DNA from: Phycisphaerales bacterium
Lineage (GTDB): Bacteria > Planctomycetota > Phycisphaerae > WQYP01
DNA: 64,000 nucleotides
Assembly: GCA_027451365.1 (NCBI GenBank)
Contig: DAIDJN010000018.1
Location: forward strand, 1-64,000
Direction: 5' to 3'
In this document: in pieces, positions 42,674-53,741 of the stretch
How the letters are laid out: each line of letters starts with the position of its first letter
How positions within the stretch are numbered: position 1 is the stretch's first letter
Program-made: the position numbers and the translations under genes
The notes under the pieces: model-generated
What the model saw: only the letters and a program-made list of their open reading frames with translations
Database searches by the model: none
What the model was told of the DNA's origin: nothing

Positions 42674-42768
42674 TCCGCCGGCTCCAATCACAACACGCCG
42701 GATTATAGCCGATAATTCCATCCGGAGCCTGTCGCCAGATGCCTCCTTCAACCAAAAAGTCTTATCGC

Positions 42769-42950
42769 GGACCTGTTGTTGGTGGCCGTGGTTCAGCGGA
42801 TATTCAGGCGTACTGTTCTATCGGGAACTTGAAACATCGCACGCATGTCGGCGGGAAATCCTGTCAGAGGCATCAAGGCTTGAGTCGTTCCGACGGGTCG
42901 AATTCCGCCGATTTTGCGTCTCGCCGCGGCTTCGACTCCACATTTAGGCC
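42769..42950 (+). ncRNA. Candidate ~180-nt structured RNA of unknown family (6S-like size)
   Basis: Closing pairing 42785-42791/42924-42930 and a long irregular hairpin 42841-42919; G-U pairs favour the + strand. Confidence 0.45.
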
Positions 42951-43011
42951 TTAGGACACGCCATTCGTCGCCGTCCGCCTCCCACGTGGGTTCACCTTCC
43001 GGCTGGCCGGT

Positions 43012-43039
43012 TTGCGATCTGGGTTCCGGAAGGTATCAT
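43012..43039 (+). promoter_or_regulatory. Putative sigma70-type promoter for the retron ncRNA
   Basis: TTGCGA-N16-TATCAT, ending 8 nt before the a2 repeat. Confidence 0.5.
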
Positions 43040-43047
43040 TTTGTCAG

Positions 43048-43157
43048 GTGTCTTGGCGGCGCTCCAATGCAGAGCGCGGGCTGATGTTTCGTCAGCCGGG
43101 CCTTCATGGCTCTGTTTCCAGAATCTGCGACACCGGTCGCACCGGTGTGCAAGACAC
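43048..43157 (+). ncRNA. Candidate retron msr-msd RNA
   Basis: Terminal inverted repeats GTGTCTTG (43048-55) and CAAGACAC (43150-57), an unpaired G at 43056, three short stem-loops and a perfect ACACCGGT/ACCGGTGT hairpin; ends 79 nt upstream of a retron-type RT. Confidence 0.7.
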
Positions 43158-43160
43158 AGG

Positions 43161-43188
43161 GGCCGGGTGTTAAAACCCGGCCTTTTTT
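43161..43188 (+). terminator. Intrinsic terminator-like hairpin between the ncRNA and the RT gene
   Basis: GGCCGGGT-GTTAAA-ACCCGGCC followed by TTTTTT. Confidence 0.7.
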
Positions 43189-43236
43189 ATTATCCATTGA
43201 ATTTGGATTTAACGATAATCCACACAAGGTGCTCCG

Positions 43237-44124
43237 ATGGGTTTTTTTTCAAAGCTATTTGGCGGCGACAGAAAACCGGACGGGCCGCTGACACTTGGCG
43301 AATTGGCCCGACGCCTGAAAATGGACGAATCGGCTCTAGCAAATCTGCCGGTTCACTATTCGGCTAAGCAGATTCCCAAACGGTCTGGTGGTCTGCGGCA
43401 ACTGCATGTGCCGGACAAGACTCTGGCGGACCTTCAGCGGACGATACTTCACCGACTTCTGGCAACACTGGCGATTCATCCGGCGGCTACCGCGTTCCGC
43501 AAAGGAAAGTCTGTGGTGAACAACGCCGGACCCCATTGTCGGAAAGCTTTAATTATCAAATTGGATGTAAAGGACTTTTTCGGAACCACCACCGCGCGGC
43601 GGGTGGAGGACTATTTTCGCGCCATTGGCTGGAATTCTCAGGCGGCAAGGCGATTGACCGAGTTGACTACGCTTAATGATGGATTGCCCCAAGGTGCCCC
43701 CACCAGCCCGGCCTTAAGCAATCTCGTGAATTACCAGATGGATGTTCGGATGGCGGCAATAGCTCAAAATAATGGTGCCGCTTATACACGCTATGCCGAT
43801 GACATCACCTTCTCGTTTGATGAATCAGCAACGCGGACCATGACCGCACTGGTTATATATCGCGCCAGAAATACACTCCGGGACTTTGATTACCGGATGC
43901 ATAGTGGCCACAAACTGCGAATAGTCAGATCGCATCAGCGGCAACTGGTAACGGGACTGGTGGTGAATCAAAAGCCCAATCTGCCGCGCAAAACCCGCCG
44001 CTGGTTGCGCGCTGTGCAACATCGCGTGGCCAATGGAAAAGAAGCCACGCTTACGCCGGGACAACTTGCGGGCTGGCACGCATTGCAAAAGATGATTCAT
44101 CAGCAAACCACCGCCGGCAAATAG
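43237..44124 (+). CDS. Retron-type reverse transcriptase (295 aa, no fused domain)
   Basis: IPKRSGGLR, NAGPH (retron NAxxH), KLDVKDFF, LPQGAPTSPALSN, YTRYADD and VTGLVVN (retron VTG). Confidence 0.92.
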   Translation: MGFFSKLFGGDRKPDGPLTLGELARRLKMDESALANLPVHYSAKQIPKRSGGLRQLHVPDKTLADLQRTILHRLLATLAIHPAATAFRKGKSVVNNAGPHCRKALIIKLDVKDFFGTTTARRVEDYFRAIGWNSQAARRLTELTTLNDGLPQGAPTSPALSNLVNYQMDVRMAAIAQNNGAAYTRYADDITFSFDESATRTMTALVIYRARNTLRDFDYRMHSGHKLRIVRSHQRQLVTGLVVNQKPNLPRKTRRWLRAVQHRVANGKEATLTPGQLAGWHALQKMIHQQTTAGK

Positions 44125-46691: not shown

Positions 46692-48050
46692 TTACCGGAC
46701 TGACCGCAGGTCCAGAAACCGGATTGGCTTGCGGGAATTGTGGCCGGCCCGCAGGCGGGCCATTTGCGCCGCGCTGCTTGGCTTTATATCGGGTGCCACT
46801 TTCAAGCTGGCGGATGCGGCCTGCCGTATCTGGCGGCACAATGCCGGAATTGCAGCCGCGGGAACGTTTAACTGTATATGGATCAATATATCATCGCTTA
46901 AATCGTGTCGGCTTCGCACCACCAGAATATAATCATGAATTTCCGGCTTTGAATTAAGCAGATCCACTATGGCGGCCGTATAAACCGTGACTCCGCGTAC
47001 TTTTAACATCTGAGCCTGACGACCAAGAATCGGACCGAGCCGCGGAGTGGTGCGGCCGCAGGGACACGGGTCGGTATACAGCGCTGCGAGGTCTCCGGTG
47101 GCGAAACGAACCAGCGGCATACCCTGCACGCCCAGTGGCGTGATTACCACCTGGCCAACGGTTCCGGGCCAGACCGGTTGATTCTGTTGATCCAGAATTT
47201 CCACTATACCCAGCGCCGGGTTCAAATGGCCTCCACCACACCGCGGCCCCTGCGCAAATGTGGTGCACGTTTCCGTCGATGCGCAGGTACTCAGAACACG
47301 AACCGCCGGCAGATTCAGACTTCTGGCGACACATTTGGCCAGCGAATTGGGGTGAAGATCAGCATCCCGAAGGGGTTCGCCAATGCCGATGGCGGCCTGA
47401 AGCTTTATGCCACCAGCCGCGCGACCGGTCGGCGCATGAGCGACCAGGGATGGGACCGTAATCAGAAATACCCGGATATGTGGCGGAATCAGCCGCTTAA
47501 GAAGCGGAATATTTGGGAAATATTGCGAGCCTGCGCGCACACACGTGGCACCCAGCTTTTGAGCGCCAAGCCAATAGGCCAGGCCCGCGACAAACATGCG
47601 GTCCATTGCCACGGCCACCACCAGCATATCGCCCCGGTTCAGCCCGGCGATATTCAGAGCCACAGCCTCATTTTCCGCCAACCGCTGAAGGTCCGCTTGT
47701 GTCAGGCCGACACGCAATGGCTGACCCGTGGTGCCGGAGGTGGTGACCCATTCGGCGATCTGGTGGCCCGGCACAGCCAGCGCATCGGCCTGAGCCACGG
47801 CTAGATCAGCTTTGGTGGTCAGTGGCATATCCATCAAATTAAGCACGGACAATTCACCGCGACACGCGCCGACAATGTGGCGAAGCCGACGGTTCAAGTC
47901 CGACCGCATCGCCCATCTCAAATGCTCCGCAAACCGTCGCCGCTGGAGCGCCTGCCAGCGTTTGACGGGCCAGAACAGCGGACGACCGGCGGGAATAATA
48001 GCCGCCGCCGGCAAGGCGGATACCGATCTTTTCAGATTGCCTTTCATCAT
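46692..48050 (-). CDS. Phenylacetate-CoA ligase-like (PaaK family) AMP-dependent ligase
   Basis: TTSGTTGQP, STCASTE, MPLVRFATGD and CPCGRTTPRLGPILGR. Confidence 0.85.
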   Translation of the reverse strand: MMKGNLKRSVSALPAAAIIPAGRPLFWPVKRWQALQRRRFAEHLRWAMRSDLNRRLRHIVGACRGELSVLNLMDMPLTTKADLAVAQADALAVPGHQIAEWVTTSGTTGQPLRVGLTQADLQRLAENEAVALNIAGLNRGDMLVVAVAMDRMFVAGLAYWLGAQKLGATCVRAGSQYFPNIPLLKRLIPPHIRVFLITVPSLVAHAPTGRAAGGIKLQAAIGIGEPLRDADLHPNSLAKCVARSLNLPAVRVLSTCASTETCTTFAQGPRCGGGHLNPALGIVEILDQQNQPVWPGTVGQVVITPLGVQGMPLVRFATGDLAALYTDPCPCGRTTPRLGPILGRQAQMLKVRGVTVYTAAIVDLLNSKPEIHDYILVVRSRHDLSDDILIHIQLNVPAAAIPALCRQIRQAASASLKVAPDIKPSSAAQMARLRAGHNSRKPIRFLDLRSVR

Positions 48051-48754
48051 GGAACATCACCCGTAAAATCAAGAGTCATCTCCAGTCCGTGGCCAGTGTC
48101 CAGAATGGTCAGACGTCCGGGCTGAAAACTTTTGTGATAGCGGCTGTACCGAATAATGACCCGACCGGCTTTCGACGTCAGGCGGGTCAGCGCAAGATGT
48201 CCCGCGGTGCCGGTAAAATAAAGCGCCCCATGCCAATTGCCGGACCCTGTGACGCGGATTTGAGCGTCGTGGCGATGAAGGGAAATGACTGGTGAAGACC
48301 GGGCGGCCACGGCTGGCGCGGCCAGCGCCATATACAGGTCATTTCCCAACGCAATTGCAAGCGTTTGGGGAAATTCCGCAGCCATATGCCGAATAATGGT
48401 GTGGCCTTTTAGTCGCTGCAGTTGAACCGCCAGCGTTCCCAATTCCGTTAAGGCCACGAAATTAAAATGAGGCGAAGGTGTTGTGATCCACTGCCCCACC
48501 AGATTTATCCGGTGACCATGCACACGCAACGTTGCAAATATAGACCGTTTGAAATGCGTTTGTAATTGCTGGAGTGAAAGGATGACCGCATCGCCAGAAG
48601 GTGCCACGCCGCGGAACACCGCCCGCGGCGGTGTGCGCCAATTCGCGCATCCCGCCAGTACCAGCGACAATACCACGCCAATGGCCGGAAGCATCCTTGA
48701 AAGGACCGGCACCTTGGTTGTAATGGCAGCGCGATCAATGGCATTATGATTCAT
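48047..48754 (-). CDS. Lipoprotein (DUF3261-like)
   Basis: Lipobox VLAGC; FVALTELGTL; operon context. Confidence 0.55.
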   Translation of the reverse strand: MNHNAIDRAAITTKVPVLSRMLPAIGVVLSLVLAGCANWRTPPRAVFRGVAPSGDAVILSLQQLQTHFKRSIFATLRVHGHRINLVGQWITTPSPHFNFVALTELGTLAVQLQRLKGHTIIRHMAAEFPQTLAIALGNDLYMALAAPAVAARSSPVISLHRHDAQIRVTGSGNWHGALYFTGTAGHLALTRLTSKAGRVIIRYSRYHKSFQPGRLTILDTGHGLEMTLDFTGDVP

Positions 48755-51700
48755 TTGGCACCATTCCTGGCATTGCGGCCGGCCGCGGCCAGAGCTTTGC
48801 GTAAAGAGGCCCGCCGCGCCGCATAAGGGGGATCCAGCCGCAGGGCATGGGCAAGGTCAGCGGCTGCGGCCGCGTATTTCCGCTGCGCCAGTTCGGCGCG
48901 CCCGCGCAACGAATATCCGCCGAAAAAGAACGGATTTTCATGAATTGCCATAGTGGCCAGGGCGGCGGCCTGCGCAAAGCGGCCCGCAGCCAGGGCGGCA
49001 TAACCGGCCACAAGATGTGCGCGCGATCGCAAAAACAACTTTTCGTGGCCACTGGTCAGGAAGTGATCTGCCGGAATAATGGGCAGTGGTGGCCCCGCGC
49101 CCACAACGGTGGTTGGGCCGCGGAGCGCTGGCATTGCCCGGAAGCCGACATAATTTCCTTCGGCAAATGGAAACGCGGCAACCCAGATATTTCCCGCTGT
49201 AAGGTCCATAATCACACTGTGCGTGGTAATAAGGCCGTCAATGCTGTTGCGATTTCCCCAGCCGATATTGCGGCCATGCGGTCCGCGCTTGTCGCGCAGG
49301 AGAGCGGCCATGGAAAATTCATTTACATGACCCTTAAGACCGCGGATAAGACGCGTAGCGCGTCGCAGCCGCCAGTTGGAGGTCGAGTTTTTAATGCGTG
49401 CCAGATTCACCGGATCCTGCGCGAATACCGGGCATTCCAACTGATTGGCCACGGCGGTGAAGCCATGGATATATCGCCATGCGAAATGAGCCGGAGATAT
49501 TTCCAGGACCGCCGCGCGACCGTTGCGACCATTTCCTACCACAATAATATTGGACACAAATACATGGGCGGCACGAAATATTTCAATGGCCTGATGAATG
49601 CTGGCCGCGTGCTGCAACACCTGGCGTGCGACAATGATTGTCGGCTCGCCCACTGGACGGAAACTCGCCGATGCGGCCGCGTTAATAAACAGGCCAATAT
49701 GCTTTTCGTTCATGCCGCTGACACAACCGGCCAGCCCCGGCCACGCCACGGTGGCAAAAGCATAACCATGACGCGGCTTTACAAAAGTGATCGATTTCTG
49801 ATGATTAAAGGCCGGTCCGCATTCAAAATCAAAGTTCCGGCCCAGCCACAGATGCCCATCCCCGGACCAGGCGGGCGTTGCGACCACGCCGGTGCAACCG
49901 ACCGCGTGACGATCAATCAGGGGATTGTCCACCAGATTCTGCGAAATATCGTCCAGGGCATGATAGGCCAGCAGTCGCGGATATAGAGGCATCAGATAGC
50001 CATGTTCATCCGGGTGGGCTTGCGCCTCAGCGTAAAGTTCGCGCTTAATATCGGCAGGAATATACTGCGGCAGAAAAAGCATATCCATGCCGATGGCCCG
50101 CAAAAGGAACCAGCGAACAAATAAGTTTGGTGCCAGCGCGTCCATGCGATCAAGCATTTGGTTTTCAATGCGCAGGTCCATGGGAGCGCCCAGTGCGGAA
50201 GCCTCGTATCCTATCTGTTCCGACGTGCCGCCAATGTGCATATCCCATACGCCATGGTCACGACGTATGCGGGCCGGACCGCAGGTCCACGCCTGCGCCC
50301 CGGTCTGCACCACGGGCCAGTGCGGAATCGGCCCCAAATGCGCGGGCTTTTCATGAAACATGATGACCTGAGCGGCTATAAGCGCCGCCAGTGCCAGAAG
50401 CATCAGCAGCCCCGCCAGCCGCCAGAAACCGGCTATCAGAAAAAACACAACACGATCGAGCCGATGCGTCCGCAGACGGAAAATCAAGCGGGTCATTGGG
50501 CTGACCAGGAAATAGGACGCCAGATAGCCGCCCGCGATGCCCGCCGCGAGTGTAAGCCCGATTCCCCGCAGCGCCGGATGCCCCGCAACCAGCATCGCCG
50601 CGGTTCCCAGAAATGTCGTCAAGGCACATAAAAATGTGGCGGCGTTGCGATTGCCACCCGCGGCCATAGGGTTTCGCCAAGCTGGGTCGCTTGCGGAATA
50701 AATGCCGTAGTCCACCGCAACTCCCATCATAAACAGCAGCGGAACCAGGCTCAGCAGGTTCAACCCGCCAGCGAACCATTGTGCCGCCCCCAGGAGCCAG
50801 ATAAATCCGACCAGCATGGAAATCGCGGAGACACATGTCAAATCAATGCGGCGAAAGAACAGCAGCATGGGCAGCAGAATCAGAAGTGCCACCCAGGGAA
50901 ACAGATTTTCCGCCTCGGCCTGGGCGCGGGCGGTGGCATTATAGAACAACAAATCGCCGGATAATATGGCCGCCCCAGGCTGGCGAAGGCGCAGTTCCCC
51001 GGCCCAATCGGTCCGCATGCGGGGCGACAGGCCACTGTTAAGCTGAACCTCTGCGGCGAGGTTAATGCGGGTGGTGCGTCCCGCGGACGTCTGAAGGTCA
51101 ACCGGGCCTGGAATAAGCCGCGCTGGAGATTCCCGCAAACGCTCAAGCGGACCGGGAATTTCAGGTAATTTGGCAATGGCGGCCACGCGATTGGAAAACG
51201 CGGCAGGCCGAAATCCATTGGCTGCGGCGGCGGTTGCCAGGCGATTTTCAACGGCAAGCTGGCGTGCGGGAGTCCAGAAGTTTCGCCATCGGGTCAGTCG
51301 GCGTCCAACGATTGTCGAATCGGGCAGCAGGAAGCCCGGCGACTGAAAAGATGAAATCAGACCGTCCTTGCGGAATTCGGTTAGCGCCTGATCCAGCCGA
51401 TGAAGCGCGGCCATAGCCTTGTCCGCATGACGATTTGACACGATTACCACAGCGCGGTGCCGAAGGTTTCCCCAGGTCTGAAAAAATTCATGCTCCTGCC
51501 GACGCAACGCGGCACCCACGCCATCCAGTGATCGGCCGTGCCGGTTGTAAGCCACATGCGCGGCATGAAAAAGCAGAACTCCGGTCAGAAGAACAAATGC
51601 AACTGCGGAACTGCGGCGAAGCCATCGGCCAGCGCCGGCCGGGAAGGCCCACCGGGCGTTATTTCTGACGGAAGCTTTTGCCAGAACCCACGGTCCAAAA

Positions 51701-52995
51701 AATGCCGGCAGAATAAGGAAGGTGACACACCAGATGCACACCGTGGCTGCCGCCACAAAAAGCCCCAGTCCGCGGAGTCCCGGCGCGGAACTGAACATAA
51801 TTGCCGAATAACCGGTGACACTGGTTATGACGCTAAGCGAAATCGGGCCTAGCATAGCACGGGCGGCCGCGCCACTGTGTGTCGGCAGGAATTTGCCATT
51901 TTCGCGGGTGGCGCGATTCAACGCGGCCAGCAACTGAATGCCGTAATCTGTGGTGGATCCACAGATCAGTCCCGCAAACGCCAGCACCAGCAAGGGCAGG
52001 TGAAGATGCAGCAGTCCGGCGATTCCCAACGCGGTTCCCACACCCATGACGGGAGGAATCATGCAGATAAGCAATGTGGAAATGCGGCGAAAAAACAGCA
52101 GTATGGCGATAGCCACCAGCACCGTTCCCACGATGGAAACCAGGGTGACATCCGCCTTGACCCGCCGCGCATTTTCCACGTAGTTGCGCGCCGGCCCGAT
52201 CAGCCAGACACGCAGTCCGGGCATTCGGCTTTGTTCCCGCGCAACAACTTTATGCACCGCGGCCAACATCTGGGAAGAAGCCACAATATTCTGGGCGGGA
52301 ACTTTTGGCAGAAGAATCAACATGACATGGCGGCGATCCGCCGAAACGATCATGCCATTTTCCATGTGGGCGGCCGGAGCCGGATTCAGCCGGCGCAACT
52401 GACTGCTTAAAATGGCGGAAAGCCCCAATGGATCCGCCGCAAGCTGTGCAGCCTGAAGCTGGCCATCGGGCGCGGCAAGGTCTGCGGCGACGACGGCAAA
52501 ATGCCGGTTCAACCATGCGGCCGCAAGATGATGGCGAAAACTCTGCAGCGCAGATCTGTCCAGCATGACCGGCGCAATGGACATCAGATTCAATTGCGCA
52601 TTCAGCCCGGCTTCCGGCGTAAAACCCGAAAATACACTCTGGAATTGCCCGGTTGCCAACAGCGATTTTTGCAGCGTCCCCGCGGCTTGCGCTGCGTTTC
52701 CACGGTGATTCCGCGCGAAGTGAACGTCCATCCGCATGGCGTTGATCAGAGCCGGATATTGGCGGGTATTGGTCAGGTCATGCACGGTGCGACTGCGCGC
52801 GGAAAAAAACAGCAGCACATTGGTCTGCCACCTGATTCCCCGTGAAGCCAAAGACATCGCAATGCTGATTGCGACAAGAACCAGAATAAGAATCAGCCGT
52901 CGGGCCGCAAGAAAACCGTACCACCTGTTCATGGCTCGCTGCAGCGGTCCGCAGGAGACCAGGCCGGGCGGATCTATGGGCGGGATGTTTTTCAA
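48751..52995 (-). CDS. MMPL/RND-type exporter fused to a C45-family (acyl-CoA:6-APA acyltransferase-like) Ntn hydrolase with TPR tail
   Basis: Two TM bundles with GSTTDYGI and GVAVDYGIY; C-terminal GCTGVV...LGRNFDF...SGMNEKHIG...THSVIMD; 1414-aa uninterrupted ORF. Confidence 0.8.
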   Translation of the reverse strand: MKNIPPIDPPGLVSCGPLQRAMNRWYGFLAARRLILILVLVAISIAMSLASRGIRWQTNVLLFFSARSRTVHDLTNTRQYPALINAMRMDVHFARNHRGNAAQAAGTLQKSLLATGQFQSVFSGFTPEAGLNAQLNLMSIAPVMLDRSALQSFRHHLAAAWLNRHFAVVAADLAAPDGQLQAAQLAADPLGLSAILSSQLRRLNPAPAAHMENGMIVSADRRHVMLILLPKVPAQNIVASSQMLAAVHKVVAREQSRMPGLRVWLIGPARNYVENARRVKADVTLVSIVGTVLVAIAILLFFRRISTLLICMIPPVMGVGTALGIAGLLHLHLPLLVLAFAGLICGSTTDYGIQLLAALNRATRENGKFLPTHSGAAARAMLGPISLSVITSVTGYSAIMFSSAPGLRGLGLFVAAATVCIWCVTFLILPAFFGPWVLAKASVRNNARWAFPAGAGRWLRRSSAVAFVLLTGVLLFHAAHVAYNRHGRSLDGVGAALRRQEHEFFQTWGNLRHRAVVIVSNRHADKAMAALHRLDQALTEFRKDGLISSFQSPGFLLPDSTIVGRRLTRWRNFWTPARQLAVENRLATAAAANGFRPAAFSNRVAAIAKLPEIPGPLERLRESPARLIPGPVDLQTSAGRTTRINLAAEVQLNSGLSPRMRTDWAGELRLRQPGAAILSGDLLFYNATARAQAEAENLFPWVALLILLPMLLFFRRIDLTCVSAISMLVGFIWLLGAAQWFAGGLNLLSLVPLLFMMGVAVDYGIYSASDPAWRNPMAAGGNRNAATFLCALTTFLGTAAMLVAGHPALRGIGLTLAAGIAGGYLASYFLVSPMTRLIFRLRTHRLDRVVFFLIAGFWRLAGLLMLLALAALIAAQVIMFHEKPAHLGPIPHWPVVQTGAQAWTCGPARIRRDHGVWDMHIGGTSEQIGYEASALGAPMDLRIENQMLDRMDALAPNLFVRWFLLRAIGMDMLFLPQYIPADIKRELYAEAQAHPDEHGYLMPLYPRLLAYHALDDISQNLVDNPLIDRHAVGCTGVVATPAWSGDGHLWLGRNFDFECGPAFNHQKSITFVKPRHGYAFATVAWPGLAGCVSGMNEKHIGLFINAAASASFRPVGEPTIIVARQVLQHAASIHQAIEIFRAAHVFVSNIIVVGNGRNGRAAVLEISPAHFAWRYIHGFTAVANQLECPVFAQDPVNLARIKNSTSNWRLRRATRLIRGLKGHVNEFSMAALLRDKRGPHGRNIGWGNRNSIDGLITTHSVIMDLTAGNIWVAAFPFAEGNYVGFRAMPALRGPTTVVGAGPPLPIIPADHFLTSGHEKLFLRSRAHLVAGYAALAAGRFAQAAALATMAIHENPFFFGGYSLRGRAELAQRKYAAAAADLAHALRLDPPYAARRASLRKALAAAGRNARNGAK

Positions 52996-53741
52996 GGCGA
53001 TCCTGTCGGCTTAAAATAATTCGCCGGTAACGGCGGATTCTTTTCCTGCTTATATAACCAATATACCGTGGCATCACCGGTTACCTGGTGAATGGCGATA
53101 TACACCAGCCGACTGGAATGCCGCGCAAAACCCAGTTGCAGATTCCGGATGGCCTTGGACAATATTCCCCGTCGCGGAACCAGTGTAAACACGATGCGCG
53201 TGGGAGCGGTTTTTTGCGGGCGGGATCGTCGCCGCGGCCCTGTTACAGGCCGTATCCGAAGCGCTGACATCGCATAGGAAATGCGATACTCTTTCCCCAG
53301 ACGCCCAACGTGTCCCAGTGACCATTGGGCCAATTGCCCCATGATGAAGCCAAGGGATTTACTCCGCGAGGGATCCGCCTTGTGCCAACGGCGGTTGGTC
53401 TGACTGCGTAAATATATATGATTTCCGGTCAGAATGACTGTCGATCGATATGGCTTCCGGGTGGCAAACCGTACATTGTCCGGCCGCCCAATCGCCAGGA
53501 TGCCGGAACTGATAAACGGCTGCCGCAGAACCGCCAGACGTTTTTCACACACAAACTTGGCCCGCCAGGTATGAAGCTTCCGCATGACAATCATTTTGCT
53601 GCGCAGGTGAGCCGCAGCGTTGCCCTGATTTGTCGCGGGAACCGCGGCGGCATTGCCGCTTGCGGGCAAAACCGTCGCCATTATGACGACAATTCGCCAC
53701 AACCCGCTAAAAACATAACGCATACCCTGTGCCCGCCGCAT
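52992..53741 (-). CDS. LolA-like lipoprotein carrier protein
   Basis: AKFVCEKRLAVLRQPFISSG...PDNVRF...KPY...LVP...GDATVY. Confidence 0.75.
   Translation of the reverse strand: MRRAQGMRYVFSGLWRIVVIMATVLPASGNAAAVPATNQGNAAAHLRSKMIVMRKLHTWRAKFVCEKRLAVLRQPFISSGILAIGRPDNVRFATRKPYRSTVILTGNHIYLRSQTNRRWHKADPSRSKSLGFIMGQLAQWSLGHVGRLGKEYRISYAMSALRIRPVTGPRRRSRPQKTAPTRIVFTLVPRRGILSKAIRNLQLGFARHSSRLVYIAIHQVTGDATVYWLYKQEKNPPLPANYFKPTGSP

Follow-up and report, generated by a model that had tools for sequence, protein, structure and literature searches.

A compact retron lineage, mostly from Planctomycetota, with no linked effector and a probable membrane anchor

When a retron reverse transcriptase (RT) gene is found with its RNA and no effector gene beside it, has the effector been lost at that one locus, or does a whole lineage do without one, and what would its reverse-transcribed DNA (RT-DNA) then be for? 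The question is raised by a locus in a Phycisphaerales bacterium (GCA_027451365.1, DAIDJN010000018.1, positions 1-64,000, forward strand; this stretch of 64,000 nt is the window referred to throughout). An initial annotation had described it from the sequence as an apparently effector-less retron with a very short RT-DNA. The features of the locus are collected in Table 1; the terminator-like hairpin, the sigma70-like site and the amphipathic N-terminal helix were absent from that annotation.

Table 1. Features of the retron locus, in window coordinates
Feature	Position	Strand	Description
Sigma70-like promoter, predicted	43012-43039	+	-35/-10 hexamers, 16-nt spacer, 9/12 consensus matches
a2 arm of the closing stem	43048-43055	+	8 nt, perfect complement of a1
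Predicted branching (priming) G, unpaired	43056	+	Opposes G43149; invariant in 20/20 aligned RNAs
msr stem-loop 1	43059-43077	+	6 bp, conserved 7-nt loop with variants
msr stem-loop 2, likely RT recognition site	43079-43097	+	8 bp, 3-nt U-rich loop
Stem-loop 3	43098-43112	+	5 bp, variable
Single-stranded linker; probable zone in which reverse transcription ends (inferred)	43113-43129	+	
msd hairpin	43130-43148	+	Variable 7-8-bp stem, near-invariant 5-nt top at 43137-43141
Opposing G, predicted first templating base	43149	+	Invariant in 20/20 RNAs
a1 arm	43150-43157	+	8 nt, pairs with a2
Terminator-like GC hairpin and T run, between RNA and RT gene	43158-43190	+	
Retron RT gene	43237-44124	+	295 aa, without fused enzyme domain
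N-terminal amphipathic helix (RT residues 1-10), predicted membrane-targeting sequence	43237-43266	+	

The RT carries the three motifs that the initial annotation had read in it, NAxxH (residues 96-100), YADD (186-189) and VTG (238-240). Among its top 120 homologs, most of which share 50-57% identity and span about 290 aa, YADD is retained by 118, an NAxxH-like motif by 110 and VTG by 106. RVT_1 was the sole Pfam match, with the RT domain beginning near residue 20, and no NCBIfam model reached its cut-off. The 25 best PADLOC models were all retron RTs, of which type XIII scored highest, though modestly (251 bits). When an AlphaFold model of the RT (mean pLDDT, 90.9) was searched with Foldseek, the top match was the RT of Ec86 (TM-score, 0.72; 28% identity), and 17 retron RT rows preceded any other RT, with group II, DGR and DRT enzymes ranking lower. 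Ec86 (Retron-Eco1, type II-A3) is thus the closest solved fold; unlike the analyzed retron, it is described as having a linked NDT effector. A homodimer prediction scored 0.00, which speaks neither for nor against a dimer. An msr-msd RNA adjoins the RT gene, with an a1/a2 stem, an unpaired G after a2, msr hairpins and one msd hairpin. Judged by motifs, predicted fold and RNA architecture, the locus is a genuine two-part retron, consisting of an RT gene and a short folded RNA.

The 110-nt element with a2/a1 repeats, stem-loops and a perfect hairpin, as first annotated, was borne out by complementarity and folding. The core RNA folded with a z score of -4.27 (1/200 shuffles equally stable), and inclusion of the downstream hairpin gave -4.98 (0/200 shuffles equally stable); the arms of the msd hairpin (43130-37/43141-48) are perfectly complementary. 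Covariation was scored on an alignment of 20 short-type RNAs, from which the misaligned L009 was left out. Pairing was found in 92% of 680 cells, and 122 cells were compensatory, whereas shuffles gave 38 and slid controls no more than 34; the scored structure had been derived from the same 20 sequences and is hence biased in its own favor. The closing helix a2/a1 was 93% paired, with compensatory change in 4 of its 8 pairs. Stem-loops 1 and 2 were each 99% paired, and 5/6 pairs of stem-loop 1 were compensatory. Stem-loop 3 was 72% paired in the alignment, a deficit due in part to register shifts. In the msd stem 6 of 7 pairs were compensatory, while the 5-nt top was identical in 17/20 RNAs. 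A covariance model built on these RNAs, the check on upstream regions that the initial annotation had proposed, matched 48/49 clade loci (28/29 outside the training set) and 0/51 other loci; the one clade locus missed has just 119 nt upstream. In a second locus set, a few of whose loci overlap with the first, it matched 23/24 clade loci and gave 1 weak match among 41 others. The source genome holds a single copy of the RNA, and no second RNA copy or second RT was found in it. Two weak, sub-threshold Rfam matches were rejected as chance, and the RNA has no Rfam family.

The flanks of the RNA were compared among 44 RNAs (6 of 50 copies, with miscalled arms, were left out). All 44 have, after a1, a hairpin with a folding energy of -15 kcal/mol or below, as do 207 of 880 random control windows (24%), and a T-rich tail stands behind this hairpin in 25. 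At a distance of 25-60 nt ahead of the branch G, 31/44 RNAs have a -35-like motif, compared with 129/880 random windows (15%); the -35 hexamer of the analyzed locus itself fails the stricter pattern used for this count. On the contig of a related organism from a mine-drainage study, the RNA differs at 1/133 nt and the RT at 69/483. In run X1, window positions 43078 and 43085 show strain differences, the first an unpaired base and the second a change from a U-G to a C-G pair, both compatible with the fold.

Several variants of the RNA were observed. In a derived branch, the msd stems are longer and the fixed loop is missing. Loci L206-L209 and L211-L215, all from one genus, combine transmembrane-anchored RTs with very short msd hairpins (about 7-8 bp) whose top is often of the UUCG type. 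At L016 (5700-5925), a Brocadiaceae record with a long-branch RT, a related longer RNA escapes the covariance model. Tandem, diverged RNA copies, each with its own downstream hairpin, precede a single RT at L152 (5657-5772 and 5823-5935), L150 (7119-7213 and 7308-7431) and L210 (1157-1283 and 1343-1479).

The RT-DNA was predicted from this architecture. G43056, previously proposed as the branching G, is unpaired in the fold and invariant, and the predicted product's 5' end is the reverse complement beginning at G43149, the same start that had been given in the initial annotation. Counted from this opposing G, the template measures 33-37 nt if copying ends at stem-loop 3 and 48-52 nt if it continues as far as stem-loop 2. 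The RT-DNA is therefore predicted to be about 35-50 nt long, its exact end point not being fixed by sequence. As their names indicate, the RT-DNA of Ec86 (86 nt) is longer than that predicted here, and that of Ec48 (48 nt) is similarly short. The predicted product is also shorter than that described for Mx162 (162 nt). According to the accessible text of a published retron census, termination of reverse transcription usually precedes an AT-rich stretch, at a position that can be found only by experiment; this rule agrees with the shorter estimate. Of the 98 predicted retrons in that census, RT-DNA was visible in E. coli for 62.

Whether RT-DNA accumulates at all bears on a second reading, in which the RT binds the RNA and maintains little or no standing RT-DNA, with synthesis being conditional or the working unit being the ribonucleoprotein itself. 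The priming context is atypical, departing from the TAGC or TTA-G context described as common, and in the covariation data the msr half is conserved to the same degree as the msd half. Type VI retrons have moreover been reported, in the text available, without the usual constitutive msDNA. The analyzed retron does not resemble type VI in its gene content, however: no conserved or hydrophobic small open reading frame (ORF) was found within the RNA in 19 RNAs, and there is no common HTH neighbor. The canonical a1/a2 stem with its two opposing invariant Gs, and the YADD, NAxxH and VTG motifs intact across the clade, also count against it, and we consider this second reading decidedly unlikely.

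The initial annotation had allowed that the RT might fall in a non-retron clade. In a quick IQ-TREE tree of 101 RTs, which held retron-type RTs only and was labeled by PADLOC score instead of by published reference sequences, it fell within a retron clade: its relatives grouped in a single branch (43 rows; SH-aLRT, 99), which lies close to type XIII and clade 11 and separate from both. Two long-branch RTs, L014 and L016, fall within this branch, with uncertain placement. Six other retron RTs with poor PADLOC fits (L019, L036, L054, L175, L032 and L021) branch near type XIII and clade 11.

Comparison with named retrons gave partial likenesses only. Type XIII (RT clade 10; Mx162, Mx65, Sa163 and Ne144) is similar in providing the best PADLOC model, in its tree region and in vertical inheritance. 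However, loci labeled type XIII score 368-556 bits against the 251 of the analyzed RT, the analyzed clade branches separately (quick tree; SH-aLRT, 99), and the analyzed locus has no SWIM/DEDE or winged-helix effector or HEAT/ARM gene nearby and no long N-terminal extension. Stand-alone retrons are described by Mestre 2020 (PMC7736814) in RT clade 11 and, within RT clade 2, in the branch of Retron-Eco5 (Ec107). A trans-acting effector or a different function was already proposed there, and the role of orphan retrons was left open. The analyzed retron is like these orphans (PMC7736814) in comprising an ncRNA and an RT without a protein cluster, in not being linked to prophages and in the trans or domesticated role proposed for it. 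Even so, its RT scored 222 and 218 bits with the Ec107-like and outgroup models, whose best-fitting loci reach 358-421 and 342-463 bits, respectively. It lies far from the Ec107 branch in the tree, and the 10 loci that best fit the outgroup models (labels by PADLOC scores) form their own branch (99), apart from the analyzed clade; the covariance model found no matches at clade-11 loci. Unlike these two groups, the analyzed clade is mostly planctomycete and has its own 110-nt RNA and a membrane-type N terminus.

The retron is flanked, as annotated, by a divergent HAD hydrolase gene and a DUF255/thioredoxin (YyaL-type) gene about 333 nt past the RT stop. The initial annotation had listed no effector, no fused domain and no island hallmarks, and the wider scans agreed. 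PADLOC at 1e-15 matched 3 of the 37 other window proteins (an SNF2 helicase, a methyltransferase and a DrmC-model match), all at least 10 kb away, and no defense gene was found within 10 kb of the retron among the 37 proteins scanned. No GC anomaly was found at the locus, and the sole tRNA of the window lies 11.5 kb from it.

The same pattern held for the relatives. For 50 clade loci, each taken with at most 6 kb of flank, homologous neighbors were shared by 4 loci at most, with neighbor genes called by a simple script and several contigs ending near the RT. Such sharing reflected either synteny between closely related loci or widespread families, response regulators and sulfatases among them. 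Of 165 nearest neighbors, 150 were scanned (15 from near-identical loci were left out); Pfam identified mainly metabolic, transport and translation genes, and the 12 PADLOC matches were spread over 11 families. A second locus set, in which 36/55 neighbors were scanned, gave a similar, mainly housekeeping picture. Since no neighbor is common to more than 4 of the 50 loci, the effector has not merely been lost at this locus, an outcome that the initial annotation had considered. The lineage as a whole lacks a linked effector, which sets it apart from the tripartite anti-phage retrons (types I-XIII); fusions occur in a minority of relatives only.

Several candidate partners were rejected. The HAD and YyaL-type genes are absent beside other clade loci, and in a same-genus genome the HAD gene is kept but adjoins an unrelated gene in the slot that the retron occupies here. 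The 296 nt that separate the HAD gene from the retron promoter (42712-43009) are skipped in the related contig and contain no ORF with a homolog elsewhere in the genome. A hidden small toxin ORF in the RNA was rejected because starts and lengths vary among 19 RNAs and none is hydrophobic. The SWIM protein considered as a distant type XIII effector is the SNF2 helicase 12 kb away; the genome's only other SWIM match is a gene on another contig.

The distribution of the lineage was examined with an RT profile built from 59 of the top 120 homologs. Of 401 sampled genomes of the phylum, 67 matched at 1e-60, and beyond a clear gap 30 matched beyond 1e-100, the source genome included. Named clade loci are mostly from Planctomycetota, with single Verrucomicrobiota and Riflebacteria records. 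Within one family, 28/201 genomes carry the retron RT and are clustered by genus (for example, 4/4, 9/12, 3/3, 3/3 and 4/6 carriers per genus, compared with 0/25 and 0/18 in others). Among 60 relatives of the source genome, 5 matched the RT at 1e-40; it was not found in the one same-genus genome searched. The best plasmid match was 40.5% identical, with no close relative on plasmids, and there was none among the best 80 viral-contig matches listed, the best of which was 43% identical. The dN/dS of the RT was 0.06-0.42 in six pairs, indicating purifying selection.

Genus-level clustering and purifying selection would agree with domestication. Patchy presence (30/401, and not found in the same-genus genome), together with occasional conflict-type fusions, suits defense as well as housekeeping. 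The initial annotation had called the locus a minimal or domesticated retron type whose effector may act in trans or may not be a protein. Domestication fits these data, and the lineage does lack a linked effector; retrons without an effector, and both of these hypotheses, were already in print in Mestre 2020 (PMC7736814), and a minority of relatives carry fused domains.

Patchiness of this kind could also be left by a relic or selfish cassette whose ancestor lost its effector and whose RNA-RT pair persists without benefit to the host. Many unrelated insertion sites, the different gene found in this slot in the same-genus genome, tandem RNA copies at three loci and one truncated clade member (L223) would all be in keeping with such a history. 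Purifying selection on both RT and RNA would not, nor would the one copy per genome seen here. Mere self-copying needs neither a conserved loop nor a membrane segment, and the accessible text of PMC7736814 describes retrons as being without demonstrated autonomous mobility. A relic or selfish origin is, in our estimate, very improbable.

The N terminus of the RT provides the second distinctive trait of the lineage. In the AlphaFold model, residues 1-10 lie outside the well-predicted core and contain a short helix (3-8) at low pLDDT. A strict motif test on the top 120 homologs found an amphipathic helix in 81 and a transmembrane segment in 11 more (92/120), against an amphipathic-helix background of 49/1919 genome ORFs. 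Among 50%-identity representatives, a predicted anchor of either kind was present in 55/75 at 300 bits or more and in 15/38 below 270 bits; since the latter lie outside the core clade, the trait is enriched, not exclusive. Relatives carry 1-3 or 8-12 predicted transmembrane helices where the analyzed RT has its amphipathic helix, and most Planctomycetaceae members have a transmembrane helix in the RT. A search for longer RT forms recovered 38 proteins, 23 of which (P0122-P0144) are clade RTs whose N-terminal domain has 8-12 predicted transmembrane helices; no family was found for this multi-pass domain in an atlas look-up (best, 0.78). Compared with the membrane-targeting tag of E. coli MinD (PMC5471200), RT residues 2-10 are identical at 6/9 positions with equal hydrophobic spacing. 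The tag is C-terminal in MinD and N-terminal in the RT, and the likeness is short and may be convergent. Together, these predictions suggest that the N terminus likely tethers the enzyme to the inner membrane.

Other fusions were observed among the relatives. P0121, a cluster of 6 from Pirellulaceae/Planctomycetota records, has the RT before DUF4011-helicase-REase-DUF3320 (1908 aa), a domain set also known from anti-phage helicase-nucleases. P0145-P0156, P0194, P0202, P0208 and P0213 combine the RT with a C-terminal OB-fold-like domain, some with HTH_40, and several of them have no N-terminal anchor; the OB-fold-like assignment of one such fusion is a lead from the atlas look-up. The peripheral relatives P0237, P0239, P0240, P0250, P0265, P0178 and P0157 are fused to trypsin, TIR, CHAT, EAD5, HU/IHF or DUF1266.

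A membrane segment on the RT invites the reading that the locus is a self-contained anti-phage system, in which that segment is the effector, the RT-DNA keeps the complex quiet and a phage trigger makes the complex gather on the membrane and damage it (abortive infection). No effector gene is there to provide toxicity, and the RT N terminus spans the range from an amphipathic helix to 8-12 transmembrane helices. According to PMC7736814, the effector of type IV retrons (Retron-Eco6, Ec48) is a 2-TM protein, and that of types I-C, XI and XII is fused to the RT. The peripheral relatives fused to TIR, CHAT, trypsin, EAD5 or helicase-nuclease domains point the same way. Nevertheless, membrane involvement in type IV comes through a separate gene, whereas here the segment is on the RT itself with no second gene, and the analyzed RT lies outside the clades of all four types. 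A 10-residue surface helix would, from general knowledge, be a weak pore former. Clade loci lie outside defense neighborhoods and keep stable synteny within genera, and neither plasmids nor the best 80 viral-contig matches listed yielded one. We therefore regard a self-contained toxic system as unlikely.

The reading that we prefer, with a probability of roughly one-half, is that of a two-part retron whose RT, likely held at the inner membrane, likely makes a branched DNA of 35-50 nt, the conserved loop of which would act via an unlinked host partner. Most transcripts begun at 43012-43039 would stop at the hairpin that follows a1; an RNA of about 140 nt would thus be in excess, and read-through would supply the RT mRNA. 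The RT thumb would bind stem-loop 2, whose geometry, an 8-bp stem with a 3-nt U-rich loop, is like that of the Ec86 element described as bound by region Y (PMC6868368). Priming would occur at the 2'-OH of G43056, with copying backwards from G43149, and the product would be a mini-hairpin with a free stem sequence and a fixed loop. Since the stem sequence is free and the loop is fixed, the loop would be the recognized part. The RT-DNA complex would sit on the inner membrane via the N-terminal helix. The absence of a linked effector, together with inheritance within genera among housekeeping genes, suggests that output goes to a chromosomal partner elsewhere, with the unit perhaps serving as a sensor or decoy in a stress or phage response. 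These considerations suggest that the role of the lineage is unlike that of the usual toxin-guarding retrons. More tentatively, and at less than even odds, the clade may be an unclassified lineage in which a membrane-bound RT is the sole protein part and a fixed-loop mini-hairpin of about 35 nt, among the shortest natural RT-DNAs, is used at the membrane either for a defense trigger or for a non-defense role fixed in planctomycete genera.

No description of the clade, of its RNA or of a membrane-anchored orphan retron RT was found in the literature searched, which mostly excluded subscription journals. Clade members may already be in the Mestre 2020 tree. Across 72 of the 85 Planctomycetota places in its table, a 2026 SPIRE survey lists numerous planctomycete RTs at low confidence, lacking effectors and under various labels, among them one low-confidence type III-A5 row with DUF6702 and flagellar-hook neighbors. 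These two families also adjoin clade members here, and neighbor families, as opposed to sequence, thus suggest that clade members were collected in that survey and went unrecognized as a group. The absence of an effector is not new in itself; what deserves attention is its absence across a lineage, combined with a compact RNA with a fixed DNA loop and a probable membrane anchor. If the anchor is real, retron RT-DNA would be tied to the cell envelope without a separate effector, a link not found in the literature searched. With a 1.1-kb cassette that allows separate mutations in the promoter, the RNA ends, the branch G, the fixed DNA loop and the membrane helix, the role of an orphan retron becomes testable. 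Having an RT of 290 aa and an RNA of 110 nt in which the msd stem can take many sequences and lengths, the retron is also a compact candidate for retron-based editing.

Downstream in the window, positions 46692-53741 hold an operon with an AMP-binding ligase gene, a 1414-aa MMPL and acyltransferase (AAT) fusion and a LolA-like gene; three genes of this operon also sit together in the same-genus genome.
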